From NCBI GenBank assembly GCA_047946875.1, contig CP181398.1, positions 1,233,329-1,297,328 of the forward strand: a DNA stretch of 64,000 nt, in the 5' to 3' direction. The notes below the pieces were generated by a model. It was not told the DNA's origin. It made no database searches and was given only the letters and a program-made list of their open reading frames with translations. The stretch is from Candidatus Kerfeldbacteria bacterium. Lineage in GTDB: Bacteria; Patescibacteriota; Patescibacteriia; UBA10025; JAHIVO01. Below, piece after piece: positions 28,808-62,261 of the stretch; position 1 is the first letter of the stretch, and each line of letters opens with the position of its first letter. A program made the position numbers and the translations under genes.

Positions 28808-28868
28808 GATTTTTTAGGCAGTGGAGTCAATGTTAGGTTTATCGAGGGAGAGTCAATTTAGAATTTAA
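28808..28868 (+). pseudogene. Remnant 3' end of a paralog of the downstream FG-GAP protein gene
   Basis: Translates ..LGSGVNVRFIEGESI*, against the C-terminus ..GGGANVRVIEGELI* of the 893-aa protein. Part of the 61-nt direct repeat. Confidence 0.5.
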
Positions 28869-28881
28869 TAAAATTATAGAT
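28821..28881 (+). repeat. Direct repeat copy A (61 nt, about 90% identical to 31523-31583)
   Basis: gtggagtcaatgttaggtttatcgagggagagtcaatttagaatttaataaaattatagat. Confidence 0.8.
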
Positions 28882-31563
28882 ATGCGGATTATTATATTAA
28901 TAATACTATTGGCAGTAACGATGTTTTTTTCTGTCAGTAAACCGGTAGATGCTATAATTAATGTTAGTAGTTGTGGTGTTCTTGCCGTGGCAGATGAAAC
29001 TTATTTGCTGACACAGGACGTTTCCTCTGTGGGAACTTGTTTTACGATCGGCGCAGATGATATTATACTTGATCTTAATAATCACACCATAACTTATGGT
29101 ACTGGTACTGGAGAATATCGTTATGGCGTTGCATTGCCGCCGCACTACATTCGCCGTGACTTTTTCCCAGATAGTGCTATTCCGGACAGCTCTTTCAATG
29201 AGACTAAAGAGCGTATTCGTATACAAAATGGTTCAATCGTTCAAGGAGGTGGTGATGGTGAAAATAGTCATGCGATTTTTGGCTATGCTAGTCATTATAT
29301 TTATATTCACAACCTAACCATAACGGTACACGGACCTGACACACAGAATATTGGTTTTACCTATTCAGAAAATATTAATGTCTATGATAATCTACTTAAT
29401 AATAATTCTACTGTGGTAACAAATCGGCATCAAGGTCGCAGTGTTGTTCAAGTGACAGAAACTTACGGTGGCAATAATTTTTATAGAAATACTATAACTG
29501 GTGGTCCGCAGTTCGGGTTACGCATTAATGGATATGATACGGTAGATTACGATACAGATTATATTTACGACAATGTGATTCGCCATAATGCCACAGTGGC
29601 AAATCCATATGGAATTTCGGCAGGTGCAAAAAATATGAAAGTATACAGCAATATGATTGAAGCGCAGAATGGACGAGGCATTCATGTATTAGGGGATAAT
29701 CAGGAGATTTACAATAATACGATTACTGTCAAGGAAGGAAGTAATAGCGAGTATTCCACTGGATGGTCTCATGGTATAAAAATTGAAGAAGCGACGAATG
29801 CAAAAGTACACAATAATACTGTTACCGCTATTGCTGAAGATGGCTTTGGTCATGCTTATGCTTTGGATATGACTATTAACGAAGGAGCTAATAATGAGGT
29901 GTATGAAAATATTTTTACTGCCACCACTACCACATCTGGTTTACATGCCGCCGCCGCTCATATTACTGTAGTAAATGAAAACAGTGGCACTGATATTCAT
30001 CATAATATATTTCGTACTAATAATCGCCATATCAGTACATCGTGGGAAAGCCCAGCATATGTTTTGTTTCGTTCAAATACTTTTGAAATTCAGGGAACGC
30101 CAATAAATTATAATACGTTGTGGTTTGAGACAGGTGATAATCCGTCTCATGGTCTGGAATTATTGGATAATACTGCTGCTACTGGCGTTTCATTTGCTGA
30201 TGTGGGCTACCGTCCCGCAGGATCAGAATATAGTTATGAAACACAGCAATATTTAAATTTAGTGGTACAAGATGCTCAGGGTCAGGTTATTCCCGATGCC
30301 GTCATTTCGATTAGCGATGTTGGTGCAAACACGGTAGCTAATGGTACTACAAATACAAACGGTACAGCGCTTTTTGCTTTACGAACACATTACTTTACTG
30401 GTAAACCAGTCGTTGACACAGGATATATACCTCATCAGGTCACAATATCACTTACCGGGTATAAAGCTTCAACAACCTTAGTAACACTGGATAGTTCCAA
30501 ACAACTTGTCGTTACTTTGACTGCTACTAACTCAAGTACTAATTCTAATACAAATGAATCAATCTATATTGCACCGACACCAGAATCAACTCCAGGAGTA
30601 GTCAGGGAAGTCGATGAAACACCTATTGCGTTAGCAAGTTCATTTTTTGTATATAATAGGAATTTACGTGGGGGCTATCATATTGCCGTTGGGAATGTCA
30701 TTGGTGATAGTAAGTATGAAATTATTACTGGTACAGGGGGTGGCATGGGTCCACATGTTCGGATATTTAATAACCAAGGAACGCTCAAAGCTCAATTTTT
30801 TGCATATAGCTCAGAGCTAAGAAATGGCGTTACTGTAACAGCATGCGACATTGATGGAGATGGATATGATGAAATAATTACTGCCCAGGGTCCTGGCGGC
30901 TGGCCATTAGTAAAAATATTTGATGGAGATGGTAATATAATTAATAATGGATTTCGTGTTCTTGATGGAGAGTTTTTAGGTGGAGTAAATCTTTCCTGTG
31001 GTGATACGAACGGTGATGGAATTAGTGAAATAGTGGTTGCTGCGATGAAGGGCGGAGGTCCACATGTTTTGGTATATAATTCAGAAGGCACTATTCTAAC
31101 TAATTTTATGGCATATGATCAAAATTTCAGGGGAGGCATTAATATCTCTACTATTGATATGGATGGTGACGGCAGGGATGAAATTGTAACTGGTCCTCAA
31201 TTTGGCGCTCCTCATGTTCAAATATTCCAAATACGCCCAAATGAACTAAAAAGGTTGTCGCCAGGGTTCTATGCTTTTTCTCCCGAATACAGAGGAGGAG
31301 TCTCAGTTGCAGGAGTTGATACGGATGGAGATGGAGAAAAAGAACTTTTGGTCGGAGTTGGGGAAGATGCTCAATCTTTGATTAAGAAATACAACATTAG
31401 AGAAGAGCTGGAAGGATCATTTTATGCTTATGGAGAAAATTTTCTTGGAGGAGTAAATTTAGGTGGAGGAGATGTGGATGGTGATGGTTTAGATGAAATT
31501 ATTATTATCCCAAGAAGTGGCGGTGGAGCTAATGTTAGGGTTATTGAGGGAGAGTTAATTTAG
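28882..31563 (+). CDS. Exported protein: signal peptide, right-handed parallel beta-helix repeats, prealbumin-like domain, C-terminal about 8x FG-GAP/VCBS-like repeats (beta-propeller)
   Basis: N-terminal signal peptide. Repeated NNTIT/HNNTVT beta-helix turns. Eight about 50-aa repeats F.AY...FRGGV.V..GD.DGDG.DEI...P..GG.PHV.IF. Confidence 0.75.
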   Translation: MRIIILIILLAVTMFFSVSKPVDAIINVSSCGVLAVADETYLLTQDVSSVGTCFTIGADDIILDLNNHTITYGTGTGEYRYGVALPPHYIRRDFFPDSAIPDSSFNETKERIRIQNGSIVQGGGDGENSHAIFGYASHYIYIHNLTITVHGPDTQNIGFTYSENINVYDNLLNNNSTVVTNRHQGRSVVQVTETYGGNNFYRNTITGGPQFGLRINGYDTVDYDTDYIYDNVIRHNATVANPYGISAGAKNMKVYSNMIEAQNGRGIHVLGDNQEIYNNTITVKEGSNSEYSTGWSHGIKIEEATNAKVHNNTVTAIAEDGFGHAYALDMTINEGANNEVYENIFTATTTTSGLHAAAAHITVVNENSGTDIHHNIFRTNNRHISTSWESPAYVLFRSNTFEIQGTPINYNTLWFETGDNPSHGLELLDNTAATGVSFADVGYRPAGSEYSYETQQYLNLVVQDAQGQVIPDAVISISDVGANTVANGTTNTNGTALFALRTHYFTGKPVVDTGYIPHQVTISLTGYKASTTLVTLDSSKQLVVTLTATNSSTNSNTNESIYIAPTPESTPGVVREVDETPIALASSFFVYNRNLRGGYHIAVGNVIGDSKYEIITGTGGGMGPHVRIFNNQGTLKAQFFAYSSELRNGVTVTACDIDGDGYDEIITAQGPGGWPLVKIFDGDGNIINNGFRVLDGEFLGGVNLSCGDTNGDGISEIVVAAMKGGGPHVLVYNSEGTILTNFMAYDQNFRGGINISTIDMDGDGRDEIVTGPQFGAPHVQIFQIRPNELKRLSPGFYAFSPEYRGGVSVAGVDTDGDGEKELLVGVGEDAQSLIKKYNIREELEGSFYAYGENFLGGVNLGGGDVDGDGLDEIIIIPRSGGGANVRVIEGELI

Positions 31564-31583
31564 AATTTGATAAAATTATAGAT
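31523..31583 (+). repeat. Direct repeat copy B (61 nt)
   Basis: gtggagctaatgttagggttattgagggagagttaatttagaatttgataaaattatagat, overlapping the stop of the 893-aa gene. Confidence 0.8.
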
Positions 31584-31632
31584 TATAGAAATTTAGGTAA
31601 ATAATTAAGGGATTAAAAGTTAAAAATAAATA

Positions 31633-31661
31633 TTGACAAAAAGTCAAAAATAAGCTATACT
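31633..31661 (+). promoter_or_regulatory. Consensus sigma70 promoter about 220 nt upstream of the 1307-aa gene
   Basis: TTGACA - 17 nt - TATACT. Confidence 0.55.
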
Positions 31662-31880
31662 AGATAATGAATTTAGCTTATTTTAGCTACAAATTTAGTT
31701 TATACGTAATTACTTTGTAATAATGATTACCATTACTTGTCAGGTACCATTAACAAAAAGTAGCGTCAATAATAGGGAGGAATAAATCCACATTTTTTGT
31801 GGTTTTTTTAATATAAATAATTTCCGCCAGAGGCGGATCAGGCTCTGCCTGAAACTTAATTAATAAATAGATAAAAAAGT

Positions 31881-34800
31881 ATGTCAAGAAAAAAAATCTT
31901 GAAATCCATTCTACACTTTGTGAAAGTAAGTGTTTATATGGTGGTCATGTTTACTATGACTTTTTCTTATTCATTCATTGGAGCTCCGCAAGCTGATGCT
32001 GTCACTACTGGAACAATTACCGGTAGGATAATGGCCGGAGGAAGTCCGGTAGATATTGGAGATGTTGGTTTGAATTTAGTAAATGCTCCAGGGGTAGACC
32101 CAGTAGGTACAAATCCTGATGGAACGTTTACATTTATTGATGTCCCTGTAAGCTATTATCAGTTAGATACTCATATTAATGACACGGTTGCATTAGCTGG
32201 TTATATGAATATTTCAGTATCAAATATTGAAGTAACGGCTGGTCAAACAACAGACGTTGGAGATATAGCATTAACACAAGCCACCAAGACAATTACAGGT
32301 ACGGTTACCAGACAAGGCACAGGAACAGCTGTTGTAGATGCTCAGATTAGTGCGTTTCCTTTTGAAGGAATGGGATCTGGCGTGAACGCTACAACTGATA
32401 GTAATGGTGATTACACATTATATTTAACAGGTGGAAAATGGGGCTTAAATGTGTCTGGTGGTTATGATGAGGAACATAATCCAATTCCAGTTGATTGGAT
32501 TTATTCTGGCATGCCACAAGATCAAAATTTTGCCGATGATAATACAGTAGAATCAAGAGTTGCAAATTTTGAAGTAGTTACCGCGAATTCTTTTGTGAAT
32601 GGTAAAATTGTATATCCAAATGGCACACCAAAAAATGATTTAAATATTGATCTGTTTAGTTTTTCCGGTGGTGGTGCTTTTGGAAGGACAGATTCTAGTG
32701 GTAATTTTACAATAAGGACTGCAGCTGGAAATTTTGAATTAAGCGCTTGGTTCCCACATGATGAGCAGCAATATTCATTACCAAGACAGCAAATATCTGT
32801 TGTGGCCAATCAAACGTTAAATCTTGGCACTATATATATTGTAGAAAAGACATCTCAAATAAAAGGTGTTGTTAAAACCTCAACTGGAATACCAGTAGAA
32901 AATGTGAATGTAAGTGCATTTAGTATGATGGGATCCGGACCTGGTGATAATGCATGGACACAGACAGCCGCCGATGGTTCTTATTCATTGTATGTAACTT
33001 CAGGAATGTGGGGAGTTGATGTCCAAACAAATCCGGAATCAGTTTGGGTGCCGGATGGAACCCAAAAACAATATCAGGTAGCGGAAAATCAGATAATTTC
33101 TAATGCAAATTTTACACTAATAAAAGCTGACGTTACTATTAATGGTAGGATTGTAAATACACAAGGCGTGTTACAATCGGATTTTTTCGGTTATGCTAAT
33201 GTAATGGATCAAGATATGCAGTTTGGTCCGGGACCGGGCAAGTTTTTCGGTGGGCAGATTGGTGGAGGAACTTTTCAGATTAAAATACCTTCTCAAGTCA
33301 TGACAAAAATAATGGTTACCACATTTGTTGAGCCTGGTAGTCCATACTCAATTCAAGAGGATATAACATTAACAGTTGCACCAAATGGTACGTATGATGT
33401 TGAATTAGTATTAGTCCCTAATGATGCAGTATTAACGGGAACGGTTAAAGATCAAAAAGGTAATGTCATATCTGGGTTTGAATTTGGTGATGTGTTTGTG
33501 ATGGGCGAAAAGGGACAATGGAATAATGCTTTTATTAACCCAGATGGTACTTATACTATGTCTCTAAGAAGTGGTACTTACGATGGTCGCGGTGCATTTA
33601 TTCGTGGTGGTGGATATATTGACAAGCCTCCACAATTTGAAGATGGTGGGGTTGTCATAAAACCCGGCACAACAATTTGGAATCCGGTGGTATATAAAGC
33701 TGATGCAAAAATTAATGTTACTATAAAAGATCCGGATGGAAATTTACTGGGTGGATTTGGATTTGCTTTTGCCCATGAAGATTTTGAGGGGGATCCAGGA
33801 ATCGGATTTAAAGATTCCATGGAGGCTGGGGGAGAGATTTTAGGAGGTAAAGGATCAATAAATGTTGTTGGAGGAAAAACTTATTTGGTTGGAGCTCCAC
33901 CTCCACCAAAATATGATTCAGAGAACTGGATGTCCCCTGAGGAACAAGAAGTGTTTGTAGCTGCAAACGGAACAGCAAGCGTAGTATTGCAATACAAGAA
34001 AGCTGATGGTGTTATTAAGGGCACCGTGACATTTGAAGATGGCTCACCAATACCTTTTGGATTCATTAGTGGATGGTCAGAAAATGGTGCGAATTCTGGT
34101 ACTCCAAATTTTGGCTCAACATTCAGCCTTCCAGTAACAAAGAATGGTATCTGGCACATAAATGCGGATACTTTCAGTGGCTCAGAATATTTTACCAGCG
34201 GAGAGACAGTTATAAAAACTCCTGATTCAACAGGATTTGTAGTGGAAAGAAATTTTGTTTTGAGTAAGTCAGATTTTCTTTTTCCTGAACCAAAATGTGC
34301 AACTTGGGATTCTACCCAACCAAAAGTTATAAATTTATCTGATGGTACATCTTTGACATTTCCTGCTAGGTCATTGGCAACAAGCGGTAATGTAACTGTT
34401 TGTGCGCAGCCAACAGTCAATCTGAAGCCGGAAAAAACTAAAAAACCAGCAAAAGGATTTGGTTATACTTTGACAGCTACTGATTCCAGCAATCAGACAA
34501 TATCTACTTTTAATTCGGCAGTTACTATAAGCATGAAAGTAGAAGCGGATAAATTGGCTGAATTGGGAATAACTACAGATGATTTATTGCCAGCCTTTTT
34601 TAATACCACAACTAATAAATGGGACACAGTAAATAATGCTACTTATGATGCAGTAAACGATTTACTTTCGTTTACTACTACTCACTTTACTGATTATGCG
34701 ATTGTAACAGGTGTGACTATTACTGGTAGTGGTCCTGTAGCTTCTGATATTATTGCCAGTCCAGCAAATAATGGAGGTCCACATGTAACGGTATGGGACT

Positions 34801-35804
34801 ATGAAGGAAATATTAAAACAAATTTCTTTGCTTATCCTTCAAATTTACGAATGAGTATTCAGACTGGCGTGGGTGATTTTGATGGAGATGGTATAAATGA
34901 GATTGTCACTATTCCTGGTGAAGGTTTTGCTCCACAAGTAAGAGTATTTAATCTAGAGGGTCAGCTTGTAGATCAGTTTTTTGCATATCAAACTCATTTA
35001 AGATCTGGTTATAATATGGTAGTTGCAGATATTGATGGTGATGGTAGTGATGAAATTATTACGGCACCTATGGCCGGTGAAGCTCCTCATGTTAGGATCT
35101 TTAATGGTAAAGGAGAAGTAGAAAATCAATTTTTTGCCTACGACGAAATGTTTAAAGGAGGGGTTAATTTGACAACTGGTGATGTAGATGGAGATGGTAA
35201 TATTGAAATAATTACTGCGCCTGCTTCAGGTGGCTCACCTGATATTAGAATCTTTAATAGTGATGGTTCTCAGGTAACTGGCTTTTGGGCATATTCTTCT
35301 GCTTTACGTGGTGGCTTTGATGTTTCTACTGGTGACTTAAATGGAGATTCGGTTGTTGATATATTAGTAACTCCTGGTGAAGGATTTGGTCCACAAATTG
35401 CTATGTTCACAGGAGATGGAACATTGATTGGAAGATTCATGGCATTTGCTGATACATTTAAGGGTGGCATTAATGCGGTCGTAGGGGATGTTACTGGCGA
35501 TTCGCAAAGTAATATAATTGTTACTCCGTTAAGTAATGGTGGTCCACAAGTTAGAGTATTTGATTACCAAGGTAATCATGTGTCACAGTTCTGGGCCTAT
35601 GCATCAACTTTAAGAGGTTCATTTGTTCCTTTAATATCTGACATTGATCAAGATGGAACAAACGAAATTGTAATAGCACCAGGTAATGGTTTTGGACCTC
35701 ACTTACGTGCATTTGAGTATGATGGAACTATTACTAGTAGTTTCTTTACTCATAATGAAGGTTATCGAGGAGGTATAAATCTAATGAGTATACCCACTTT
35801 TTAA
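31881..35804 (+). CDS. Large exported protein: N-terminal signal/anchor, multiple prealbumin/CarboxypepD_reg-like domains, C-terminal about 9x FG-GAP/VCBS-like repeats
   Basis: 1307 aa. Hydrophobic N-terminus, AQA cleavage-like site. Repeated about 90-aa Ig-like modules (TGxV.D..G.PI..A.V). C-terminal repeats paralogous to those of the 893-aa protein. Confidence 0.75.
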   Translation: MSRKKILKSILHFVKVSVYMVVMFTMTFSYSFIGAPQADAVTTGTITGRIMAGGSPVDIGDVGLNLVNAPGVDPVGTNPDGTFTFIDVPVSYYQLDTHINDTVALAGYMNISVSNIEVTAGQTTDVGDIALTQATKTITGTVTRQGTGTAVVDAQISAFPFEGMGSGVNATTDSNGDYTLYLTGGKWGLNVSGGYDEEHNPIPVDWIYSGMPQDQNFADDNTVESRVANFEVVTANSFVNGKIVYPNGTPKNDLNIDLFSFSGGGAFGRTDSSGNFTIRTAAGNFELSAWFPHDEQQYSLPRQQISVVANQTLNLGTIYIVEKTSQIKGVVKTSTGIPVENVNVSAFSMMGSGPGDNAWTQTAADGSYSLYVTSGMWGVDVQTNPESVWVPDGTQKQYQVAENQIISNANFTLIKADVTINGRIVNTQGVLQSDFFGYANVMDQDMQFGPGPGKFFGGQIGGGTFQIKIPSQVMTKIMVTTFVEPGSPYSIQEDITLTVAPNGTYDVELVLVPNDAVLTGTVKDQKGNVISGFEFGDVFVMGEKGQWNNAFINPDGTYTMSLRSGTYDGRGAFIRGGGYIDKPPQFEDGGVVIKPGTTIWNPVVYKADAKINVTIKDPDGNLLGGFGFAFAHEDFEGDPGIGFKDSMEAGGEILGGKGSINVVGGKTYLVGAPPPPKYDSENWMSPEEQEVFVAANGTASVVLQYKKADGVIKGTVTFEDGSPIPFGFISGWSENGANSGTPNFGSTFSLPVTKNGIWHINADTFSGSEYFTSGETVIKTPDSTGFVVERNFVLSKSDFLFPEPKCATWDSTQPKVINLSDGTSLTFPARSLATSGNVTVCAQPTVNLKPEKTKKPAKGFGYTLTATDSSNQTISTFNSAVTISMKVEADKLAELGITTDDLLPAFFNTTTNKWDTVNNATYDAVNDLLSFTTTHFTDYAIVTGVTITGSGPVASDIIASPANNGGPHVTVWDYEGNIKTNFFAYPSNLRMSIQTGVGDFDGDGINEIVTIPGEGFAPQVRVFNLEGQLVDQFFAYQTHLRSGYNMVVADIDGDGSDEIITAPMAGEAPHVRIFNGKGEVENQFFAYDEMFKGGVNLTTGDVDGDGNIEIITAPASGGSPDIRIFNSDGSQVTGFWAYSSALRGGFDVSTGDLNGDSVVDILVTPGEGFGPQIAMFTGDGTLIGRFMAFADTFKGGINAVVGDVTGDSQSNIIVTPLSNGGPQVRVFDYQGNHVSQFWAYASTLRGSFVPLISDIDQDGTNEIVIAPGNGFGPHLRAFEYDGTITSSFFTHNEGYRGGINLMSIPTF

Positions 35805-36300: not shown

Positions 36301-36752
36301 AAAATATTTATATCAATAAGATATTTTGGCCATTTTTTGGTATCTTAATATTATTTTTTATTGATAGATTAAGTAAAATATTATCCATTAAATACTTATC
36401 TGATGAGGGATTTTTTTTAATCCCAAATACTACTGGATTTGTTTTAGAATGGAATCAGGGTATTGCTTATTCTATTCCGTTGTCAGGAATATATTTAATT
36501 TTTATTTTAATATTAATAATACTTATTTTAGGAGCTCTGGCAGTAAAGGCTTATCGTCAGCATAAAAATAATATTGTATTATCGATTGGATTAATTATCG
36601 CCGGTGCAACTTCTAATCTTATTGATCGTTTTATGTATGATAATGTGATTGATATATTGGTATTAACAAAATGGCCAGTTTTTAATATTGCTGATCTAAT
36701 GATATTGGCAGGAGGAATTTGGTTAGTAACTATTTATTTAAAGAAGAAATAA
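36267..36752 (+). CDS. lspA: Lipoprotein signal peptidase (signal peptidase II)
   Basis: Conserved NQGIAYS and FNIADLMI motifs, four TM helices. Overlaps the dksA-like gene by 34 nt. Confidence 0.8.
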   Translation: MFKMRGWSEIIKNIYINKIFWPFFGILILFFIDRLSKILSIKYLSDEGFFLIPNTTGFVLEWNQGIAYSIPLSGIYLIFILILIILILGALAVKAYRQHKNNIVLSIGLIIAGATSNLIDRFMYDNVIDILVLTKWPVFNIADLMILAGGIWLVTIYLKKK

Positions 36753-36825
36753 ATCTTGACTGATGGATGAATGATTGCTAAGGTTATCTAATTGTTCATT
36801 CACACTATTTATAGAGGAGTTTGTT

Positions 36826-37587
36826 GTGACAAAATATATAACACTTATTAGTCTCACGTTGGTACTAATATGCTGTGGTGATTTTGTCAAAGCAGGCGAA
36901 TCACCAAGTTTTTTATTGCTACATGAAGATGCGAAGTATAGATTAGATTCTTTGAATCGGATAGAGTCTGATAGTAATTTAGTGGAACGTATTATTCTGA
37001 TGCATAATCTAGGATTTAATGGTGACAAGAAACTTCGAGAGAAGGCAGAAAAGTTAGTTAAAGATAAATTCAAGAAGGGTAAGCGTGCTCCATTAGTTGA
37101 GGCGTATGATGGTTCTCTAAGAATGATCAAGGTAAAACATAAAAATACCGCTAGCAAGATTTTTGGGAGTTTTTTTGGAAATTCTCCATACAAAGAAGCT
37201 AGAAATGGTTTTAATATTATATCTGAGGCATTGGAAAGAGATCCTAATAATATTAACATTAGGTTTGTGAGAGCGTCTGCGGCGGTGGAGTCAGCAGAGC
37301 ATTTACCTGAGTTGTTAGTTCATGCAGATATAGATATTCTATGGCTTGAAAGTAACATTGATCGTACAGATGCAGCTTCAGTTTTTTTCTTTTATTTGAC
37401 TAAGGCAAAATTTTATTATAAAAGTGCCTTGGAAGAAAAAAAGATATTAATCAAAGTAGTGATTATCGAAAAAGCAATAGAATTAATTGATCAAGCTGGT
37501 GAATTTGTTTGTTCGGAAGTATTTTGTCGGGAGCACTTGCTATGGCAAAAGAAAATTGAAATCCTTTATCAAACAGGAAGTAAGTAG
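36826..37587 (+). CDS. Hypothetical (lipo)protein with helical repeats
   Basis: GTG start with AGAGGAG RBS 5 nt upstream. Signal peptide ending LVLICCG (lipobox-like). The ORF-track start at 36775 lacks an RBS. The antisense ORF 36738-37259 is rejected. Confidence 0.45.
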   Translation: MTKYITLISLTLVLICCGDFVKAGESPSFLLLHEDAKYRLDSLNRIESDSNLVERIILMHNLGFNGDKKLREKAEKLVKDKFKKGKRAPLVEAYDGSLRMIKVKHKNTASKIFGSFFGNSPYKEARNGFNIISEALERDPNNINIRFVRASAAVESAEHLPELLVHADIDILWLESNIDRTDAASVFFFYLTKAKFYYKSALEEKKILIKVVIIEKAIELIDQAGEFVCSEVFCREHLLWQKKIEILYQTGSK

Positions 37588-53360: not shown

Positions 53361-56300
53361 ATGTCAAAAGGAAAAAATAAAATAAGTAGCTTTAAAAAGA
53401 AATGGATTTTAGTAGGGGTTCTTGTTTTTTTTGCTATACAACTTTTGATGCCTATTATAGTCATGCCAAAACAAGCTAATGCTGTTTTGGGTGTTGGTGA
53501 TACTACAATTACTTTGGGTGATATTCCTAGATTAATTTGGGATAGTATTTCTAGTGCTATAAAAAAAGCTGGTGCAGTGGCATTTAAAAACGCTGTAAAA
53601 ACTTTTGCAAACAATTTAGCTTATAATGCAGCTACCGGACTAGCAACAGGAGAAAAAGGGGAAAAGCCATTATTTACCACAGAGCCACTAAAAATATTAG
53701 AACAGGCGGCAGATATAGCTGCTGGAGATTTTTTGGATTCTGTGGCTGGGGATTGGTTAGGCAAAGCAAAATGTGCCGGATATTATGGTGAAGATGTTTC
53801 TTGTAAGGATGATCAAGGTTGTCCAACACCAGTTTTAGATTGTACTGCTATAGAAAATTTTACATCATTACAAAAATCAATTTGTTCTGAAGGGGTAGAA
53901 TTTATGGAAGTATGTTTGGCTCAAGGATGTGTAATTGAAGAAATTGAAAATAGAGAAATGTTTAATTTTCTAATGGACATTGGAGTTGTTGGCGTAAATA
54001 ATGAGCCGTATATTGAAGGATCTCCAAAATGTACAAATGATTTTTCTCTTTGTGATCAATCAGATTTATTTAAAGTTAACATTAATATAAAGACTAGAGC
54101 CTCATTAGATCCGGCAACAAAAGATACTATAAGTGGTAAATGTCAGGTAACTGATATTATAGATATAATGGAGCAAAATGTAGATGATGCAAATAATCTT
54201 TGGGAGGATCTAACCAATAAAGAAAAAAATAATTTATATTTACAACAAATAGCTAAAGGATTTAATCCAGAGGTGAGTGAGTTAGGGGCATATATTACTA
54301 TTAGTAATCGAACTAAAGATGAGGCAGCAAAGGCTCAAAAAAACACAGAATTTTCTGAACAGCTAAGTGGTGGTCTGAGTAGTGTTACCTCTAAAATTTC
54401 TGGTGCGGTTAAGACGCCCGGTCCATTGCTCGAGAGTGCGATAAATTCTACATTTAAAACTAGTTTAGATCTACAAAACACTTTTACTGGAGAAATTATT
54501 GCTGATGCTATTGGAACTTTTACAAGTACTTTAGCAAATAAGATGATGGATAAGTACTTTGAAGGTTTAGTAGAGCCAGAGCTTAATAGTGGAGGTGGTA
54601 GTAGTAGTCTTTTAGGAGGTTTACTTGGTGGAGTTAGGTCTGGTATTACTGCAGCAAAATTACTTTTTGCTGATTTGAAACAAGTAAATTATTCAGTTGG
54701 CGGTAATTTGGATATTTTATCGAGTTTAGCAAGTTGTCCTGATACAGAGGATCCTACCCAAGATACATGTGTTATTGATTCTAGATTTTATACTGCTATA
54801 GAACAGCAGTTGACTGTACGCGAGGCTCTTGATGCTGGTCTATTAGATGGTAATAAATTATTTGGCTATGATATCAATGGTAATCAACCAGAATATTATA
54901 ATGGTTATCCTTATAGAAGCTTGGTTATTTTAAGGAAATATAGAGTACTTCCAGTTGGTTGGGAATTAGCTGCTAACTACATGAGAGAGTATGCTCGTGG
55001 TTTTTATAGTTTGAATATTTTAATTGATGAATACGATAATATTGATTCACCATTTTATCATTTAGTTGATCCAAACTGGGTTCTGAAAGCTCCGTCAGTT
55101 TATTGTGAAAGACAGGGTGCTGGAGATAAAATAGAGTATTCTGATGCAATAAGGTCTGAAGATACTAATAAACTTCCAGACAGTGGCATTGATAGTAAAG
55201 ACGCTGCTATCCCAATTGTAACGAGAAATTCTAATTATTGTGCTGATGAACAATTATGTTTAATAGAAAATGACGATGGTTCGTGTAAAAAATATGGTTA
55301 TTGTATAGAAGAAGAACCTATTTGGAAATTTGCTGGGGCAGCTTGTCAAGAAGAATATAGTTCTTGCCAAAGTTTTGGTGAAAATGAAAATTATTTAACC
55401 AACAGTTTAGATTATGGTACTTGTAATTCTGAGAATGCTGGTTGTCAGTGGTATTGTCAGGATTATGATCTTGTATCTGGAGAGTGGCAATGTACCAATC
55501 AAGATCCTCCAGCTGGTGGTAATAAAATAAGTTTTAATGATAACGCAGAAAGTTGTAGTGCGAATGGTGAAGGTTGTAGTGAATATATACCAATAACAAA
55601 TAGCGGAGCAAACTTAGTAAAAAATTCTAATTTTGAGGATTTTGATACAACTGCAGATGTAGCACTAGCTACAGATGGCCTAAGAGATTTAGCTTTACCA
55701 ATCCCTCCGCCATTTGGAGGTACTAGTCTGCCTGACGATTTTGCTGATTGGTCTCATAATTATGTTAATGGTGTTGATCCATGTCAGCAAAGAAGTTTAG
55801 CTTCTTCAGATTCTTTTGGGGGATTAACTGCAGCTAGAATTCATCAATATCCAGCTTGCCCCTCAGGTGATGGTCAATATATGACTCAGCGTTTAGATAC
55901 AGGATATCTCACAGATAATAGAACATTTACTGTTTCATTTTATGCTAAGCGCGCTGAAGGTGGAACTTGTAATGCAACTAATGATAATGTATTAATAGAT
56001 TTTACCAGAAATTTTGCCCCAGCTTCTCCCGGCCCACCACCAATACTAGCAGATGTTCAATATGTTGGTGGTCAGACAGCAAATGTATCCGCTGATTGGA
56101 CCAGATATGCTCTAACATTTAACTTTGATAGTCAGCCTGCTTCACGATGGAATTGGGGAACAACAGCTCTAAATAATCACTATAAGCGTACCTTCATATT
56201 ATTTGTAAGACATAATAGCACAGATTGTGATATTCTTATTGATAATATTCAAGTAGAAGAGGGAGGATTGACCAATTATAAGGCTTATGAAGATTCAAGT

Positions 56301-59300
56301 AAGACATATCTTAAGAAGGCTCCTGAGTACTTAAATTGTACAGGCGGTCCTTTTGATGATCCGTTATGTTTAAATTTTGCTCTTAACTGTTCTGCTGATG
56401 AAGTTGGCTGTCAGAAATTTACATCTACTACTTCAGGTCAGAGTGTTACGGGGACAATCACAAATATAGGTATTTGTAATCCGAATGATCCATCTTCTTG
56501 TGACCAATGTCCTCTTGAGTTTGTCGGCTGTCAGGCTTATCGTGAATTAGCTACCGAGAATGTACCATATAGACCTGCTGTGGATCCAGTATCATTTGTT
56601 CAGGAGACTGGTTTGAGTTGTCCTGCTTCTGCTGTCGGATGTGAAGAATATACAAATTTAGAAGAAATTGCCGCCGGTGGTGAAGGTAGAGAATATTATA
56701 GTTGGATCAAGCAATGTGTTGAAGAAAGTGATCCGAATGTATCTACATACTATACTTGGGAAGGTTCGGAAGAATTTGGATATCAATTAAAAGATTATCA
56801 GTTGAAGACAAGTAATGTAGCAGATCCAGATATTTTAGGACCACCACTGAACACTACTAAATATGGTCCGTGTACTAATATGGCACCAGAAGATCCTTAT
56901 TTAGATACACTTGGACTAGGTTGGAATACATGTATTGATGATGAAGTCGTTGATAGGAATGGTGATGGAATTATTGATGAGACTTATGATATGCAGGTAT
57001 GTACTTTAGCTGAGGTAGGTGTTGACCCTGATTGTGCAGAATTTATTGATGAGGAAGGATATAGATTCTATCGTCTTAAATCAAAAGTTATTTATACTTC
57101 ATCAAATTGCAAAGTTTATCGTAATAGTTTAGATAGTGGAGCTACATGTCAGGCAGGTTTTTGTACAAATAATAATTCTATTTGTGCTACTGATTCGACA
57201 TGTACTGATATTTTATATCACATGATTCCTAATCAGGGTAATTCATGTTCAGCGCAATACGCAGGATGTCGGGCGTATAAAGGTAATGCTGGGGATAATA
57301 GCCATGTCATTTATAGTTATAATTTTGAATCTGGCGATTTGGATACTTGGAATTCTGGAGTACCAGCAAATCCTACGTTACTGAGTAATGAGTCAGTTAA
57401 TTTTGGTGGACATTCAATGTTATTTTTTGACGCTGCATATTATCGATGGTTAACTGCAGCAAATGAGTTGTTACCGATCAAAGGAAATTCTTATAATTTA
57501 TCTTTTTGGGCCAAGGCAGGCACGAGTGATTCTATAATAGAGGCTTCTTTCGGACAGATGGGATTTACTAAGAAATTTGAAGGGTCAGCGGTGGCTAGGG
57601 TCGGTGAGTGGAATCAATACGAGGTAGGACCATTATATGTTGATTGGGATGTTCTGCCAAATTCTATATCCATGTTTTTCGAAACCACAGGTTCGGTTTA
57701 TATTGATAATATACAACTTTCAGAAATTGTAGATAATATTTATAAGGTCAAAGATTCATACACCAGATGTGATGGATATGAAAATTGTGATCAGTATACT
57801 GACATACCGGGTGCTACTCATTATCTAAAATCATTTTCATCCCTCTGTGGTGAAGATAAGATTGGTTGTGAAGCAATGATTGATACAAAAAATAGTTCTA
57901 CTCCAGGAGAATTAGAATATGAGGTGGCAGCTGGAGTGCTAAAATATATACCAAAAGATACCACAATAACATTAGTTAATGATCCAAATAAGAGATGCTC
58001 GGCCGGTGAAAAAGGCTGTGAATGGTTGGGAGTGCCAACTATTAATTCTGTTGGGAATGTTAGCTCTTTTGATGATGCATATATAAAAAACGATCCAGAT
58101 AAATATGATACGGATTTATGTTTATTTGAAGAGAGTGGGTGTAAAGAATATATAACTCCAGAAGGATCTAAATATTATTTCAAAGATCCAACTTCAAATA
58201 TTTGTGAATATAAGAGAGTTGCTGGTCAATCAAAATCTGGTTGGTATCAAAATGAAACAAATGTTGGTGAGCCTGATTGTCCTGTGACTGTGGGTGTATG
58301 TAAAAATAGTCCAATAAGTGATGAAGGCAAAGCTTGTGGTACTGATTTGGATTGTGATGATGGAGCTGGTTTTTGTGCAATAGGTTATTGTGAAGATAAT
58401 ACTACGTTGTGTTCTGACAACGGAATGTGTGTTGGTGATTGTATTCCTTCGTTTAATGTTGTCCCACAACCAAATGGAGAATGGGCTGGTGTTTGTCCAA
58501 TAACAGCTTCTACATGTACAGAATATCGTGATCCAGAAAAACCATTTTTTTATGACTCAGCTACTCCAGGTGATATTACTTATTGTGATGTTACTTTAGC
58601 AGATGGTGGTAGCGATGGAGATAATACATATGACTGTGATTCATACTATTATTTATCAAATGAAATTGATGAGGCTTCATGTAATGGCTTGGTAGACAGA
58701 GAAGAAGGATGTTTGTTGTTTAATAACACGGCAGCAGAAAATCTAATATTCTATGCAGATGACACAAAGAACGGTACAGCTCCAGAAGTTTGCGATATAA
58801 CCACCGTACCACCGGAAGAATGTGACTCTAATATTATTATAAAAGTAAATAAAGATAGAGTGTGTGGCCGTTGGATCGACTGTGAAACTTCTATTCCACC
58901 TACTGATGGGTCTAGTAATAGTTTGTGTACTGAAATTAATATTTGTGAGAAAATGGATAGTCTATCAACAAATTGTATTAAATGGGATGGAAAAGCTTCC
59001 GATATTAATCAAACTTACGATACACCAGCCTTTGTAGATAAAATTAAAAATTATTCTGGATTAGTGTTGGCTGGTCTTGATTGGGATAAGCGATGTACTA
59101 ATGATACAAATAAGGTTTGTTTAGTTGACACTGATTGTGGTACTTTGCCAGCACATAAATGTTCGGATCCTCAAATTTACGAAGGAAGCTTGCCAACAGC
59201 GTTGATGTCTCAGGTTGGTTCAGCTGCGTTTAATGGTAACTTGATACCAGATGGAGATTTTGGTGATAGTAATTATAAACTTAACCAAAAATTAAGCTGT

Positions 59301-62261
59301 CCATTATCAGGGGGTGATGCAGAATGTGAAGAAATTAAGGGGGAACCTAACGAACTTGAACTAGATCTTAATCAATTTTTTACAACAAAATGGTATCCAA
59401 GAGAGATTGACCCTCCAGCACCATCAACAATATATTGGACGGAGGAAACTGACAAGGGTATAGTCCCCTCTCCGAATGGTAATTTGGATGAAAATAATAT
59501 TGCTAAGATTGTTACACCGGGTGATGTGAATAAAACTGGTATTTCCTATAACCTTGGTGATACTATAATAAAGGATTATGAATATGCGATGTCTTTCAAA
59601 TTAAGATGGTCAAGTGTCCCATCAGAGTTTGATAAGATAAGAGTGGAGCTAGAATATAGAGACCCAGATGGAGTTCTTGTGAATTGGAATCAACGTTTTG
59701 CTGAAGATATTACGCCAAGTGAAAATTGGACAGAATATGCTCTTGGGCCGATACCGGCTGGATTTGATGAAGGGCTTACTACAATTACTAATTATGGAGA
59801 TGTTTCTCTAAATATTATTCATGTATATGATCCAGCTGGTGGGGCGGTACCTTCAGTAACATTTTATATCGACGATGTATCTATGGATCCAGTTTTGACT
59901 ACAAAGAATGGTACTTGCCAAACAGTTAGTGATGATCTAGCTGTCCAAACTGCTTATGAAGTGACTGGGTTTGCTGATAAACAATGTAATTCAATTGGTG
60001 ATTGTGCGACGGCTGGATTTAATGACTTGGCAGTAAAATGCGAAGGTATGGAGAATATTGCAAGATCTTGTAGATTATATCCAAAAGACGATTCTAGATA
60101 TTGTACTTATGTTGATCAAAATAATACAACCTTCCAAGGTTGGTATGGATATTGTCTTGAGCAGGATCCAAATAATTCAGAATATTGTTTGAACTGGTGG
60201 CCAGTTGATTTGCTTAGTGGTGAATCAGATGTATTTGGAACCTTACCTCCGTTTAATTTGAAAATACGTCAGCCTCTATATATGTGTCTGGAAGCGGAAG
60301 GTAATTATAATAATGGATTATTTATTGGAAATATTGATGTAAATGATAATAATTGGAATTCGTGCCACGACGATGATAACGGCAATAGTAGTAAAGATCT
60401 TCCAGAAGTAGCATCTCCTCTAGTTGGTATTACAAAGGGTTATCAACAGACTATGGTAACCCCTCATGATAGAACTCCTAATTGGCATGGTGATAGCTGT
60501 AATCAACAAGGAGAAGTTTATAATTTGATTCCTAATAGAGATTCAGGCACACACCCCGGAGTTTTATTTTCTTGTGATGATGGTGATGGTGGTTGTGGTT
60601 CACCTTCTGCTCCCGCAACACCTCTCTTACCAGAAGATCAATATTATATGTGGGAAATTGAAAGGATAGTTGTAGTTGGTCAATTATGGAGTCATGAAGA
60701 TTGGGATCCTAAAAATGCATCAAAATATCGACAATATAATGATGCAGGGAATGAATCTATGGATTTTAGTAACTCTGCTGTTTATGGGGATGACCCTAAT
60801 ATTAATGGATTTCCGTATTTTATTTTTCCAACGGATTATATTAATATTAATAATCTAAAAGCCTCTTGGTCTTCTCCCGGTAGTACAGTATGGAGCGCTT
60901 CTTATGGAAGTTTTAATATAGATGTAGGTGGTAATGATGGTAATTGGGACCCTGCAAATGTTCATAAATCAAATATTTTTACTTTTAGCCTTATTTTTGA
61001 TGCTAATGATAAATTAACTACAATTGGTACGTATATTCATGATTATGATAATGGAGGGGCATTTTGGGCAACTCCAATCTTTTATCTAAAAGATCAGTGT
61101 ACAAGAATTGTGGGAGTGAATAAAGCTGATAATACAAATAAAGCTTGGGCTAGTAAATTAAATAGTAATAGTTCTTATCGAGTTCCAGATCTTGATTATA
61201 CTTATAATCAATTTTCTAGTCCTTATGGCGGTATTATTCAGCCTAGCCCGATTACTTCTGAACCCGTAAATTGGAATGCTTCTAATGGGGCTGGACCGCT
61301 ATTTCTACAAAGTCCTACCAATCATGCTCATGCTGGAAGTGCCTATAGTTTTGTATCTCCAAATGATTCAGCTGGTCGCTTGTGTAGTGTGATTGTTGCA
61401 GGAGCTAATTACTCAACACAAAATGTATGTCTAGATATGGAGGATGTAGAAGAATGTAATCTTGCTGGTGGTACTTGTATTGGTACAGGACAAGGTTTTT
61501 GTGAACAAGATCCAACTATATTCTGTCGTCCAACACTACCAGTAGCTGATCCAATATTTGATACAGATTGTGAGGATTCTAGTTTCGATTATTACGGTCC
61601 ATGTATTATGGGTACTGGTGGTGCTGCAGGTATAATAAATTATACTGACGGAATGGATATAATAAGACTATTATTTGCCAATACTTTTCAAGTTTGGGAT
61701 TGGAATGATACAGGTGGTTTGTATGAAGTATCTAGTTCAGTAGTTTCTACTGATTTAGTAGATCAGGATGCAAATACCTCAATTTATAATGGTATGCCTT
61801 TGTGTCTACCTGTTGGTTCTCAATTCCGTACACCAAATACTTATTGTGGAATACCTCCAGTCTTAGATGTTACGTTAAGCAATTCACCTGGTCAGACTGT
61901 TGATTTGAGTCATGCAGGTGGAAGAGTTTCATTTACTGTTAATGTCAAAGCAGATCCTGAGCAATTACCTATTACGCAGATAGAGATTGATTGGAACGCT
62001 TTGGACGGGGATAGTGTGGATCAAACACTGTTTGGACCTTTTGATTCTGGTACCTTTATAATTAATCATGTTTATACTACTTCAGGTTCTGGAGGACAAA
62101 CTTTTCAGCCACAATTTAAAGTTATAGATAATTGGGATTGGTGTGGAGCATCTTCTGATGAACCATGTACTAATAATACTAATTGTCGTAATACAGGTGA
62201 ACCTGGTTATACTTGTGATTGGGTAAATCCTGGAATTTTTGTTAATGTTAGTGCAATATAG
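53361..62261 (+). CDS. Giant (2966 aa) cysteine-rich, Asn/Gly/Asp/Thr-rich exported surface protein
   Basis: Uninterrupted 8.9-kb ORF. N-terminal TM/signal (WILVGVLVFFAIQLLMPIIVMPKQANA). More than 100 Cys, often in C-x(2-8)-C pairs. No recognisable enzymatic motif. The antisense ORF 53354-53614 is rejected. Confidence 0.85.
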   Translation: MSKGKNKISSFKKKWILVGVLVFFAIQLLMPIIVMPKQANAVLGVGDTTITLGDIPRLIWDSISSAIKKAGAVAFKNAVKTFANNLAYNAATGLATGEKGEKPLFTTEPLKILEQAADIAAGDFLDSVAGDWLGKAKCAGYYGEDVSCKDDQGCPTPVLDCTAIENFTSLQKSICSEGVEFMEVCLAQGCVIEEIENREMFNFLMDIGVVGVNNEPYIEGSPKCTNDFSLCDQSDLFKVNINIKTRASLDPATKDTISGKCQVTDIIDIMEQNVDDANNLWEDLTNKEKNNLYLQQIAKGFNPEVSELGAYITISNRTKDEAAKAQKNTEFSEQLSGGLSSVTSKISGAVKTPGPLLESAINSTFKTSLDLQNTFTGEIIADAIGTFTSTLANKMMDKYFEGLVEPELNSGGGSSSLLGGLLGGVRSGITAAKLLFADLKQVNYSVGGNLDILSSLASCPDTEDPTQDTCVIDSRFYTAIEQQLTVREALDAGLLDGNKLFGYDINGNQPEYYNGYPYRSLVILRKYRVLPVGWELAANYMREYARGFYSLNILIDEYDNIDSPFYHLVDPNWVLKAPSVYCERQGAGDKIEYSDAIRSEDTNKLPDSGIDSKDAAIPIVTRNSNYCADEQLCLIENDDGSCKKYGYCIEEEPIWKFAGAACQEEYSSCQSFGENENYLTNSLDYGTCNSENAGCQWYCQDYDLVSGEWQCTNQDPPAGGNKISFNDNAESCSANGEGCSEYIPITNSGANLVKNSNFEDFDTTADVALATDGLRDLALPIPPPFGGTSLPDDFADWSHNYVNGVDPCQQRSLASSDSFGGLTAARIHQYPACPSGDGQYMTQRLDTGYLTDNRTFTVSFYAKRAEGGTCNATNDNVLIDFTRNFAPASPGPPPILADVQYVGGQTANVSADWTRYALTFNFDSQPASRWNWGTTALNNHYKRTFILFVRHNSTDCDILIDNIQVEEGGLTNYKAYEDSSKTYLKKAPEYLNCTGGPFDDPLCLNFALNCSADEVGCQKFTSTTSGQSVTGTITNIGICNPNDPSSCDQCPLEFVGCQAYRELATENVPYRPAVDPVSFVQETGLSCPASAVGCEEYTNLEEIAAGGEGREYYSWIKQCVEESDPNVSTYYTWEGSEEFGYQLKDYQLKTSNVADPDILGPPLNTTKYGPCTNMAPEDPYLDTLGLGWNTCIDDEVVDRNGDGIIDETYDMQVCTLAEVGVDPDCAEFIDEEGYRFYRLKSKVIYTSSNCKVYRNSLDSGATCQAGFCTNNNSICATDSTCTDILYHMIPNQGNSCSAQYAGCRAYKGNAGDNSHVIYSYNFESGDLDTWNSGVPANPTLLSNESVNFGGHSMLFFDAAYYRWLTAANELLPIKGNSYNLSFWAKAGTSDSIIEASFGQMGFTKKFEGSAVARVGEWNQYEVGPLYVDWDVLPNSISMFFETTGSVYIDNIQLSEIVDNIYKVKDSYTRCDGYENCDQYTDIPGATHYLKSFSSLCGEDKIGCEAMIDTKNSSTPGELEYEVAAGVLKYIPKDTTITLVNDPNKRCSAGEKGCEWLGVPTINSVGNVSSFDDAYIKNDPDKYDTDLCLFEESGCKEYITPEGSKYYFKDPTSNICEYKRVAGQSKSGWYQNETNVGEPDCPVTVGVCKNSPISDEGKACGTDLDCDDGAGFCAIGYCEDNTTLCSDNGMCVGDCIPSFNVVPQPNGEWAGVCPITASTCTEYRDPEKPFFYDSATPGDITYCDVTLADGGSDGDNTYDCDSYYYLSNEIDEASCNGLVDREEGCLLFNNTAAENLIFYADDTKNGTAPEVCDITTVPPEECDSNIIIKVNKDRVCGRWIDCETSIPPTDGSSNSLCTEINICEKMDSLSTNCIKWDGKASDINQTYDTPAFVDKIKNYSGLVLAGLDWDKRCTNDTNKVCLVDTDCGTLPAHKCSDPQIYEGSLPTALMSQVGSAAFNGNLIPDGDFGDSNYKLNQKLSCPLSGGDAECEEIKGEPNELELDLNQFFTTKWYPREIDPPAPSTIYWTEETDKGIVPSPNGNLDENNIAKIVTPGDVNKTGISYNLGDTIIKDYEYAMSFKLRWSSVPSEFDKIRVELEYRDPDGVLVNWNQRFAEDITPSENWTEYALGPIPAGFDEGLTTITNYGDVSLNIIHVYDPAGGAVPSVTFYIDDVSMDPVLTTKNGTCQTVSDDLAVQTAYEVTGFADKQCNSIGDCATAGFNDLAVKCEGMENIARSCRLYPKDDSRYCTYVDQNNTTFQGWYGYCLEQDPNNSEYCLNWWPVDLLSGESDVFGTLPPFNLKIRQPLYMCLEAEGNYNNGLFIGNIDVNDNNWNSCHDDDNGNSSKDLPEVASPLVGITKGYQQTMVTPHDRTPNWHGDSCNQQGEVYNLIPNRDSGTHPGVLFSCDDGDGGCGSPSAPATPLLPEDQYYMWEIERIVVVGQLWSHEDWDPKNASKYRQYNDAGNESMDFSNSAVYGDDPNINGFPYFIFPTDYININNLKASWSSPGSTVWSASYGSFNIDVGGNDGNWDPANVHKSNIFTFSLIFDANDKLTTIGTYIHDYDNGGAFWATPIFYLKDQCTRIVGVNKADNTNKAWASKLNSNSSYRVPDLDYTYNQFSSPYGGIIQPSPITSEPVNWNASNGAGPLFLQSPTNHAHAGSAYSFVSPNDSAGRLCSVIVAGANYSTQNVCLDMEDVEECNLAGGTCIGTGQGFCEQDPTIFCRPTLPVADPIFDTDCEDSSFDYYGPCIMGTGGAAGIINYTDGMDIIRLLFANTFQVWDWNDTGGLYEVSSSVVSTDLVDQDANTSIYNGMPLCLPVGSQFRTPNTYCGIPPVLDVTLSNSPGQTVDLSHAGGRVSFTVNVKADPEQLPITQIEIDWNALDGDSVDQTLFGPFDSGTFIINHVYTTSGSGGQTFQPQFKVIDNWDWCGASSDEPCTNNTNCRNTGEPGYTCDWVNPGIFVNVSAI

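Follow-up and report, generated by a model that had tools for sequence, protein, structure and literature searches.

Here, we analyzed a 64,000-nucleotide (nt) window from a Candidatus Kerfeldbacteria bacterium (Patescibacteriota; GenBank assembly GCA_047946875.1, contig CP181398.1, positions 1,233,329 to 1,297,328 of the forward strand; GC content ~33%), in which two adjacent plus-strand genes encode large, apparently exported proteins of 893 and 1307 amino acids (aa), hereafter called P1 and P2. Both open reading frames (ORFs) lie where an earlier reading of the DNA letters and their translations (the sequence-only reading) had placed them, and each product is 100% identical to an NCBI entry named 'FG-GAP-like repeat-containing protein' from a Candidatus Kerfeldbacteria bacterium metagenome-assembled genome (MAG). 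An NCBIfam search gave nothing meaningful for either protein. The overall domain architecture is almost certainly as listed in Table 1, where positions are those of the window. Two of its elements had been overlooked before, namely a probable autoproteolytic domain of the MAIN/GAIN-like type in P2 and a single prealbumin-like sandwich in P1.

Table 1. Genes, protein domains and DNA elements at the P1-P2 locus (a slash marks a predicted cleavage site)
Feature	Position	Strand	Basis
P1 gene, 893 aa: signal peptide, beta-helix, prealbumin-like sandwich, linker, 6-blade FG-GAP propeller	28882..31563	+	ORF list
P2 gene, 1307 aa: signal peptide, CarboxypepD_reg array, MAIN/GAIN-like sandwich, 7-blade FG-GAP propeller	31881..35804	+	ORF list
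P1 predicted Sec signal peptide, aa 1-24, MRIIILIILLAVTMFFSVSKPVDA/IINV	28882..28953	+	n-h-c layout, V-D-A at -3..-1
P1 right-handed parallel beta-helix head, aa ~25-445	28954..30216	+	AlphaFold2, Foldseek, Pfam matches of homologs
P1 prealbumin/CarboxypepD_reg-like beta-sandwich, aa 450-561	30229..30564	+	AlphaFold2 model, sub-threshold Pfam match
P1 Pro/Thr/Glu-rich disordered linker, aa 562-587	30565..30642	+	low pLDDT, sequence
P1 C-terminal FG-GAP propeller, six 51-aa units	30643..31560	+	unit dissection, model, Foldseek
P2 predicted signal peptide, aa 1-40, ...FSYSFIGAPQADA/VTTG	31881..32000	+	sequence; signal-peptide-like ortholog N-termini
P2 CarboxypepD_reg/transthyretin-like Ig array, aa 41-792	32001..34256	+	PF13620, at least five modules by Pfam
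P2 MAIN/GAIN_B-like beta-sandwich, aa 793-953	34257..34739	+	model and family profile
P2 H935-F936-T937, predicted self-cleavage site (F/T)	34683..34691	+	conservation, GPS alignment
P2 C-terminal FG-GAP propeller, 7 blades	34743..35801	+	unit dissection, model, Foldseek
Direct repeat, left copy, 20 nt, AATTTAATAAAATTATAGAT	28862..28881	+	brackets P1
Direct repeat, right copy, 20 nt, AATTTGATAAAATTATAGAT	31564..31583	+	19/20 identical to left copy
Sigma-70-like promoter match TTGACA-17-TATACT upstream of P2	31633..31661	+	consensus match only; the best of the region
Intrinsic-terminator-like hairpin (12 bp) and T-run after P2	35839..35869	+	sequence

The C-terminal regions of P1 and P2 align with each other at 37% identity (E = 1.6e-55), and both proteins passed the Pfam gathering thresholds for FG-GAP (PF01839; 53.1 bits in P1 and 40.9 bits in P2, cutoff 22.1 bits) and FG-GAP_3 (PF13517, formerly VCBS; 55.8 and 45.4 bits, respectively, cutoff 26.9 bits). 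The repeats of about 50 aa that the sequence-only reading had described were recovered with the consensus as written there and a period of 51 aa in both proteins. The calcium-binding DxDGDG loops that it had pointed out are also present, five per protein in the canonical form D-x-[DN]-x-D-[GS]-x-x-[DEN], and represent metal sites predicted from sequence. On the other hand, the eight to nine tandem repeats that had been counted were too many. When units were cut at their aromatic F-[FWY]-A-[YF] start, P1 contained six units of 47-54 aa each (aa 588-893), the last one flush with the C-terminus, and P2 contained six units of exactly 51 aa (aa 982-1287) between an N-terminal half-unit (aa ~955-981, ending in ...GGPHVTVWDYEGN) and a C-terminal half-unit (FFTHNEGYRGGINLMSIPTF). 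These layouts, six units flush with the C-terminus and half-unit, six units and half-unit, were found in all P1 and all P2 orthologs, respectively. A hidden Markov model of the repeat unit detected no copies outside P1 and P2 in the six-frame translation of the window.

AlphaFold2 models were built on homolog alignments for P1 and for aa 691-1307 of P2, with a mean predicted local distance difference test (pLDDT) score of 85.9 and 86.0, respectively. The propeller regions (pLDDT ~90) comprise 24 strands in P1 and 28 strands in P2, corresponding to six and seven four-stranded blades, and the two terminal half-units of P2 jointly make its closing blade. Foldseek matched both models to propellers with probability 1.0; from this and the strand counts we infer a closed propeller ring in each protein. 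The expected propeller fold was thus borne out by structure prediction, and the expected number of blades (seven to eight) was right for P2 but not for P1. Seven blades, a feature of the integrin-alpha type, are present in P2, whereas P1 has six in all orthologs. The best solved match of P2 was the N-acetylglucosamine (GlcNAc) lectin AAL-2 (4tqm; E = 7e-10, TMt 0.60), and P1 matched the six-bladed lectin UmbA4 (9oee) and six-bladed NHL domains (TMt 0.64-0.69). Further Foldseek matches of both proteins included integrin alpha, CRTAC1, Bap1 and YesW/YesX. Among PDB sequences, Bap1 (6mlt) was the best match for P1 alone (E = 4e-4) and the second match for the P2-family profile (5e-14). The solved structures closest in fold, the GlcNAc lectins AAL-2/PVL and UmbA4, are propellers that bind glycans, which points to a glycan-binding attachment module.

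Between its last immunoglobulin (Ig) module and the propeller, P2 contains a domain (aa ~793-953, ending in ...LLSFTTTHFTDYAIVTG) for which Pfam gave no credible family; GPS and ZU5 were not matched. It was modelled as a beta-sandwich of 11 strands and one helix, with the tripeptide HFT in a tight turn between the last two sandwich strands (model strands 238-245 and 248-253; H245-F246-T247 in model numbering). H935 and T937 do not vary across 15 homologs, the most distant of which is 22% identical; F936 is conserved to at least 90%, with HLT in one homolog. With a profile of this HFT domain, 5,994 representative proteins were retrieved at E <= 1e-3 among 1.84 billion proteins, and H-x-[ST] is kept in 143 of the best 144 of them; the tripeptides in these 144 are HFT (90), HLT (30), HFS (20), HLS (2) and HAT (1). 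When profiles of the domain were searched against all PDB sequences, the only matches were GPS regions of adhesion G-protein-coupled receptors (GPCRs), in which HFT aligned on HL/T. The E-value of the ADGRF1 GPS improved from 0.36 with a profile of 12 sequences to 0.005 with 32 diverse sequences, and with the latter the GPS region of ADGRB2 also appeared (E = 2.1).

A domain family of this kind has been described in a preprint of May 2026 under the name MAIN (Microbial Autoproteolysis INducing), comprising microbial GAIN_B-like beta-sandwiches that superpose on GAIN_B at TM about 0.6 and cleave themselves at H-x-(S/T) in the last beta-turn (Brogan and Rudner, bioRxiv 10.64898/2026.05.12.724683). 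The MAIN domain of Bacillus subtilis YfkN is cleaved at F/S and its fragments remain associated, and MAIN proteins follow the order signal peptide, adhesion or enzyme domains, MAIN, surface anchor (10.64898/2026.05.12.724683). The survey behind that family drew on RefSeq Select, its text and tables make no mention of Patescibacteria, and FG-GAP appears in it as merely a rare co-occurring domain (10.64898/2026.05.12.724683). The verified MAIN sequences given in Table S8 of the preprint comprise the first ~93 codons, without the conserved half, and in this form scored at most 8 bits against our HFT-domain profile. P2 agrees with the definition of a MAIN domain in motif, in the position of the motif and in architecture. 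It is highly probable that the P2 sandwich is MAIN/GAIN-like and, judging from its sequence, rather likely that it cleaves itself. The only two cysteines of P2, Cys806 and Cys841 (34296-34298 and 34401-34403), are also located within this domain; they are kept only in close P2 orthologs and may form a lineage-specific disulfide.

The remaining N-terminal ~750 residues of P2 form an array of transthyretin-like modules. CarboxypepD_reg (PF13620) was matched in five stretches (5.4e-28, 97.6 bits; cutoff 32.3 bits), in agreement with the CarboxypepD_reg/prealbumin-like modules proposed before. The P2-family profile matched the Ig array of NOMO2 in PDB (1e-21), and the last Ig module of P2 is visible in the AlphaFold2 model. 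Export, which had also been proposed for both proteins, was supported on a heuristic basis by an n-h-c layout with an A-x-A type site, VDA/I in P1 and ADA/V in P2. The N-termini of P2 orthologs and of their LPXTG-type relatives are likewise signal-peptide-like with A-x-A sites. Alternatively, the long N-terminal hydrophobic segment of P2 may be an uncleaved signal anchor. P1 is predicted by the same heuristic to be exported by a Sec signal peptide, and its model begins with an isolated helix (residues 2-17) followed by a stretch of low pLDDT (17-22). We also considered P1 as a lipoprotein because of the sequence V-S-S-C31, but this was rejected: C31 lies 15 residues beyond the h-region, within a folded domain, and is conserved together with C53. 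This Cys31/Cys53 pair stands at the start of the beta-helix and is kept in at least 90% of homologs.

The N-terminal part of P1 was modelled as a long run of short strands that form a parallel beta-helix, for which Foldseek found the HK620 tailspike. The parallel beta-helix of the sequence-only reading thus holds at the level of fold and homology but is below the Pfam threshold, as P1 itself had no match to Beta_helix (PF13229) or NosD (PF05048) at E <= 0.1, whereas 9 of 14 homologs matched PF13229 and 5 of the 14 matched NosD. A profile of P1 homologs detected no solved sequence relative of the beta-helix in PDB. Homologs share many invariant polar residues in the helix, which suggests a specific groove, either enzymatic or glycan-binding. 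The sandwich that follows (pLDDT > 90) matched CarboxypepD_reg with E = 0.003 and 18.2 bits, below the cutoff, and six of the 14 homologs matched this family. Residues 568-585 of the adjoining linker have pLDDT < 50.

Neither P1 nor P2 contains an LPXTG signal, a C-terminal transmembrane segment or a lipobox, and no LPXTG signal was found in the whole window. Among the best 144 representatives of the HFT domain, 29 proteins have an FG-GAP propeller with four or more units in the slot after the domain, and a propeller N-terminal to the HFT domain was observed in none. Other relatives have a canonical sortase signal after the domain, such as ...LPDTGSPFLPPLAALVVGVAGLAIVKKSR, or a C-terminal transmembrane anchor with a basic tail. 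The nearest relatives of P2 share its CarboxypepD_reg stalk but end in fn3 and LPXTG.

The propeller was then followed on its own. When 185,579 species genomes were scanned with an alignment of the propeller, 182 relatives were confirmed, and 79 loci were kept. By their record titles, most of these loci belong to Patescibacteria (Kerfeld-, Parcu-, Uhr-, Komeili-, Doudna- and Falkowbacteria, Saccharimonadia and Microgenomates), a few to Planctomycetota, Verrucomicrobiota or Actinomycetota, and about 20 are TPA MAG records titled 'uncultured Gammaproteobacteria'. Many of the latter (loci L006-L008, L014, L017, L026, L029 and others) have propellers 60-77% identical to that of P1, and one P2 ortholog of 80% identity (P0041/L038) is labelled Zixibacteria. 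Considering their similarity to Kerfeldbacteria sequences, both labels are probably wrong, reflecting a binning or default-taxonomy artefact. Several genomes have two to three or more propeller loci with differing partners.

In most of the 79 kept loci, the propeller is the extreme C-terminal module behind a signal peptide. The heads found among 53 ORFs include Peptidase_S8 (15), NHL (13), Peptidase_M23 (7), YkuD L,D-transpeptidase (4), NAGPA (3) and Beta_helix (2), as well as purple-acid/PhoD phosphatases and glycosidases. M23 and YkuD enzymes normally bear LysM, SH3b or peptidoglycan-binding modules, and on the enzymes found here it is the propeller that occupies this slot. These enzyme fusions, together with the alternation of the propeller with LPXTG and transmembrane anchors, suggest that the propeller acts as a common attachment or targeting module. 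On this view the N-terminal parts, which the sequence-only reading had regarded as passenger domains, are better read as functional heads.

The two genes had also been described as paralogs. The relationship is confined to the propellers, which by sequence belong to two different subfamilies. The P1 propeller shares 57-69% identity with the six-blade propellers that are fused to beta-helices and to NAGPA in two further Patescibacteria genomes of ~1.1 Mb, against only 37-38% with seven-blade propellers of the P2 type. Even the adjacency of the two genes is specific to this genome. On three related contigs the order is thioredoxin, TrxB, GDH, P2, DksA/TraR and LspA, with GDH directly adjoining P2 and no P1, and P2 is the resident gene of the locus. 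Elsewhere, P1 orthologs are located between an NAGPA-propeller gene and a FecR/Glucodextran_B/fn3 gene. A tandem duplication of P1 and P2 is thus ruled out by subfamily identity and synteny. In this genome, the P1 ORF is bounded precisely by the two copies of a 20-nt direct repeat, one immediately ahead of its ATG and the other immediately behind its stop codon; no transposase was found nearby. P1 appears to have been inserted into the GDH-P2 spacer in this genome only, and the direct repeat resembles the footprint that an insertion of gene size would leave. P2 is flanked by a strong promoter-like site and a terminator-like hairpin of its own. Both ~1.1-Mb genomes carry a three-gene surface cluster composed of NAGPA with a six-blade propeller, the P1 ortholog, and FecR with Glucodextran_B and fn3 (L001 8274-14919; L002 8204-14954), and the great similarity of its two adjacent propellers suggests module exchange or duplication between neighbours.

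Taken together, our preferred reading, in which we place moderate confidence, is that P1 and P2 are secreted multi-domain proteins of the cell envelope that carry the propeller as a glycan-binding tag, with a self-cleaving joint in P2. The propeller would be a lectin-like module for an envelope glycan (peptidoglycan or a wall glycopolymer), most likely of the producer's own wall, and would keep otherwise soluble exported proteins at the surface in place of LPXTG/sortase, transmembrane anchors, LysM or SH3b. The heads would provide the specific activity, which in P1 is probably polysaccharide binding or cleavage and in P2 the role of a spacer or adhesive stalk. In P2, an N-to-O acyl shift is predicted to cut the sandwich between F936 and T937, His935 serving as the base and Thr937 as the nucleophile. 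The last beta-strand (TDYAIVTG), then part of the propeller fragment, would stay in the sandwich, so that the stalk would be held non-covalently until shear or ligand pull frees it. For the ligand, structural neighbours and fusion partners incline us, by a little, towards an envelope glycan; an anchoring role on the producer's own wall is a more tentative proposal, although this wall is more likely to be the ligand than that of a host.

Several observations weigh against this reading. A host-directed role would fit equally well on structure alone, as the ligands of Bap1, integrins, UmbA4 and fungal lectins all lie on other surfaces. Any release mechanism would be confined to P2, since a MAIN domain is absent from P1. 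If P2 had an uncleaved signal anchor, its topology would be inverted and the propeller would be distal. The C-terminal anchor is not universal either, since the four YkuD fusions have the reverse order of signal peptide, propeller and C-terminal YkuD (L054 1323-2708; L062 4908-6314; L078 4791-6266; L084 4455-5864). Finally, LysM-M23 proteins also occur in Patescibacteria, so the propeller is not the sole option for wall binding.

In the most serious alternative, it is the propellers that act as adhesive heads, on a host cell or substrate, within an integrin/Bap1-like adhesin family that diversifies with host surfaces; the N-terminal parts would be stalks or passengers. We consider it unlikely. 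Cultivated Patescibacteria are episymbionts, the closest solved relatives of the propeller are adhesins and lectins (Bap1, integrin alpha, PVL/AAL-2 and UmbA4), and the several propeller loci per genome with different partners would suit such a family; a signal anchor at the P2 N-terminus would place the propeller at the distal end and turn the MAIN joint into a break-away link to the host. However, the N-termini resemble cleavable signal peptides, the propeller occurs on housekeeping wall enzymes, among them the YkuD L,D-transpeptidase, and it substitutes for LPXTG and transmembrane anchors in homologous architectures. There is also no sign of hypervariability. Full-length identity among P2 orthologs is 72-80%, which gives no hint of rapid diversification, and propellers within a subfamily are 57-77% identical across genomes. 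Hence little is retained here of the diversifying adhesin family suggested by the sequence-only reading, with which the identity of the P2 orthologs, the enzyme fusions and the anchor substitution accord poorly.

It is less probable still that the propeller is a protein-protein module, either docking on an S-layer, pilus or envelope protein or serving oligomerization. Many beta-propellers do serve as platforms for protein interactions, and those of integrin alpha pair with beta subunits. A modular unit at the C-terminus is also what dockerin- or SLH-like docking systems typically show, and one neighbour in L002 has a dockerin match. Nevertheless, the best structural matches are lectins, M23 and YkuD enzymes bear the propeller in place of LysM/SH3b-type modules, which suggests a wall polymer as ligand, and no conserved partner gene was observed beside the propeller genes in the contexts examined. 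That the propeller is itself catalytic, like the eight-bladed FG-GAP propellers of the PL11 lyases YesW and YesX, is very improbable: both are among the sequence-profile and Foldseek matches, but the similarity resides in the generic calcium-loop repeat, and very regular blades, six or seven rather than eight, appended to many unrelated catalytic domains are the behaviour of a binding module. The eight-bladed PL11 rhamnogalacturonan lyase propeller as such was ruled out by the numbers of blades and the fusion pattern.

Patescibacteria account for a large share of bacterial diversity and are mostly uncultured and often episymbiotic. Little is understood of the way in which they present enzymes and adhesins at their envelope, or of how they attach to hosts and detach again. 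The reading of P1 and P2 as glycan-tagged envelope proteins leads to a broader and more speculative proposal, that the 51-aa propeller is a previously unrecognized general wall-glycan module of Patescibacteria, replacing LPXTG/sortase, SLH, LysM and SH3b, and that together with the MAIN joint it makes a force-releasable tether on these ultrasmall episymbionts. Such a tether could free the stalk from the symbiont's own wall, or be a break-away link to the host. If the propeller is indeed a wall-glycan module, it would provide a sequence tag for the surface proteome (subtilases, M23 peptidases, L,D-transpeptidases, phosphatases and glycosidases so far) and a handle for affinity reagents. P2 would also extend the MAIN domain to the candidate phyla radiation, with a non-canonical lectin-type anchor. 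If these proposals are wrong, P1 and P2 would still be ordinary FG-GAP-repeat exoproteins, as which NCBI has already annotated them.

Some other genes of the window are worth mentioning. Downstream of lspA there is a 270-aa ORF without Pfam match (36775-37587, plus strand), and an unannotated gene of similar size occupies the same relative position in L003 and L005; a 173-aa ORF antisense to it (36738-37259, minus strand) is probably spurious. A 2966-aa ORF (53361-62261, plus strand) with an N-terminal hydrophobic segment and a weak CBM_4_9 match probably encodes another giant surface protein, in which no FG-GAP unit, MAIN-like domain or LPXTG was found.

Among known systems, MAIN proteins such as YfkN resemble P2 in domain order, in large size and in the H-x-(S/T) motif in the last beta-turn. 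CarboxypepD_reg, of which the P2 stalk is made, is among their co-occurring domains (Table S1 of 10.64898/2026.05.12.724683). However, MAIN proteins have a sortase signal, SLH or a known wall-binding domain after MAIN, and P2 has an FG-GAP propeller; the nucleophile is Ser in YfkN (HFS) and is predicted to be Thr in P2 (HFT), and the lineage of P2 is Patescibacteria. The GAIN/GPS regions of adhesion GPCRs (ADGRF1, ADGRB2 and latrophilin) align with the last three strands of the P2 sandwich, HFT on HL/T, and would have in common with it both the predicted chemistry and a last strand that is retained non-covalently. Unlike adhesion GPCRs, P2 lacks the GAIN_A helical subdomain, the GPS cysteines and the seven-transmembrane region, its downstream partner is a soluble propeller, and the E-value is just 0.005.

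With regard to the propeller, D-x-D-x-D-G-x-x-D calcium loops are common to P1, P2, the integrin-alpha FG-GAP propellers and PVL/AAL-2 (2bwm, 4tqm), which like P2 are seven-bladed. In contrast to these, the repeat of P1 and P2 is shorter and more regular (51 aa), P1 has six blades, and the propeller sits C-terminally on modular bacterial exoproteins. Bap1/RbmC of Vibrio cholerae are, like P1 and P2, secreted surface or matrix proteins with an FG-GAP/VCBS calcium-binding propeller. Bap1 has an eight-bladed propeller interrupted by a beta-prism lectin, and no modular head or MAIN domain. UmbA4 of the Streptomyces umbrella toxins is a six-bladed calcium-loop propeller lectin that binds wall teichuronic acid (9oee; PMC13274773). 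It was the second-best Foldseek match of P1 and is appended C-terminally to another domain, as is the P1 propeller; yet UmbA targets competitor cells in a toxin particle, the identity with P1 is just 19%, and P1 has no sign of a toxin complex. LysM, SH3b, SLH and choline-binding repeats, with folds unrelated to that of the propeller, whose binding is predicted here, have the same proposed role and the same position on M23 peptidases, L,D-transpeptidases and subtilases.

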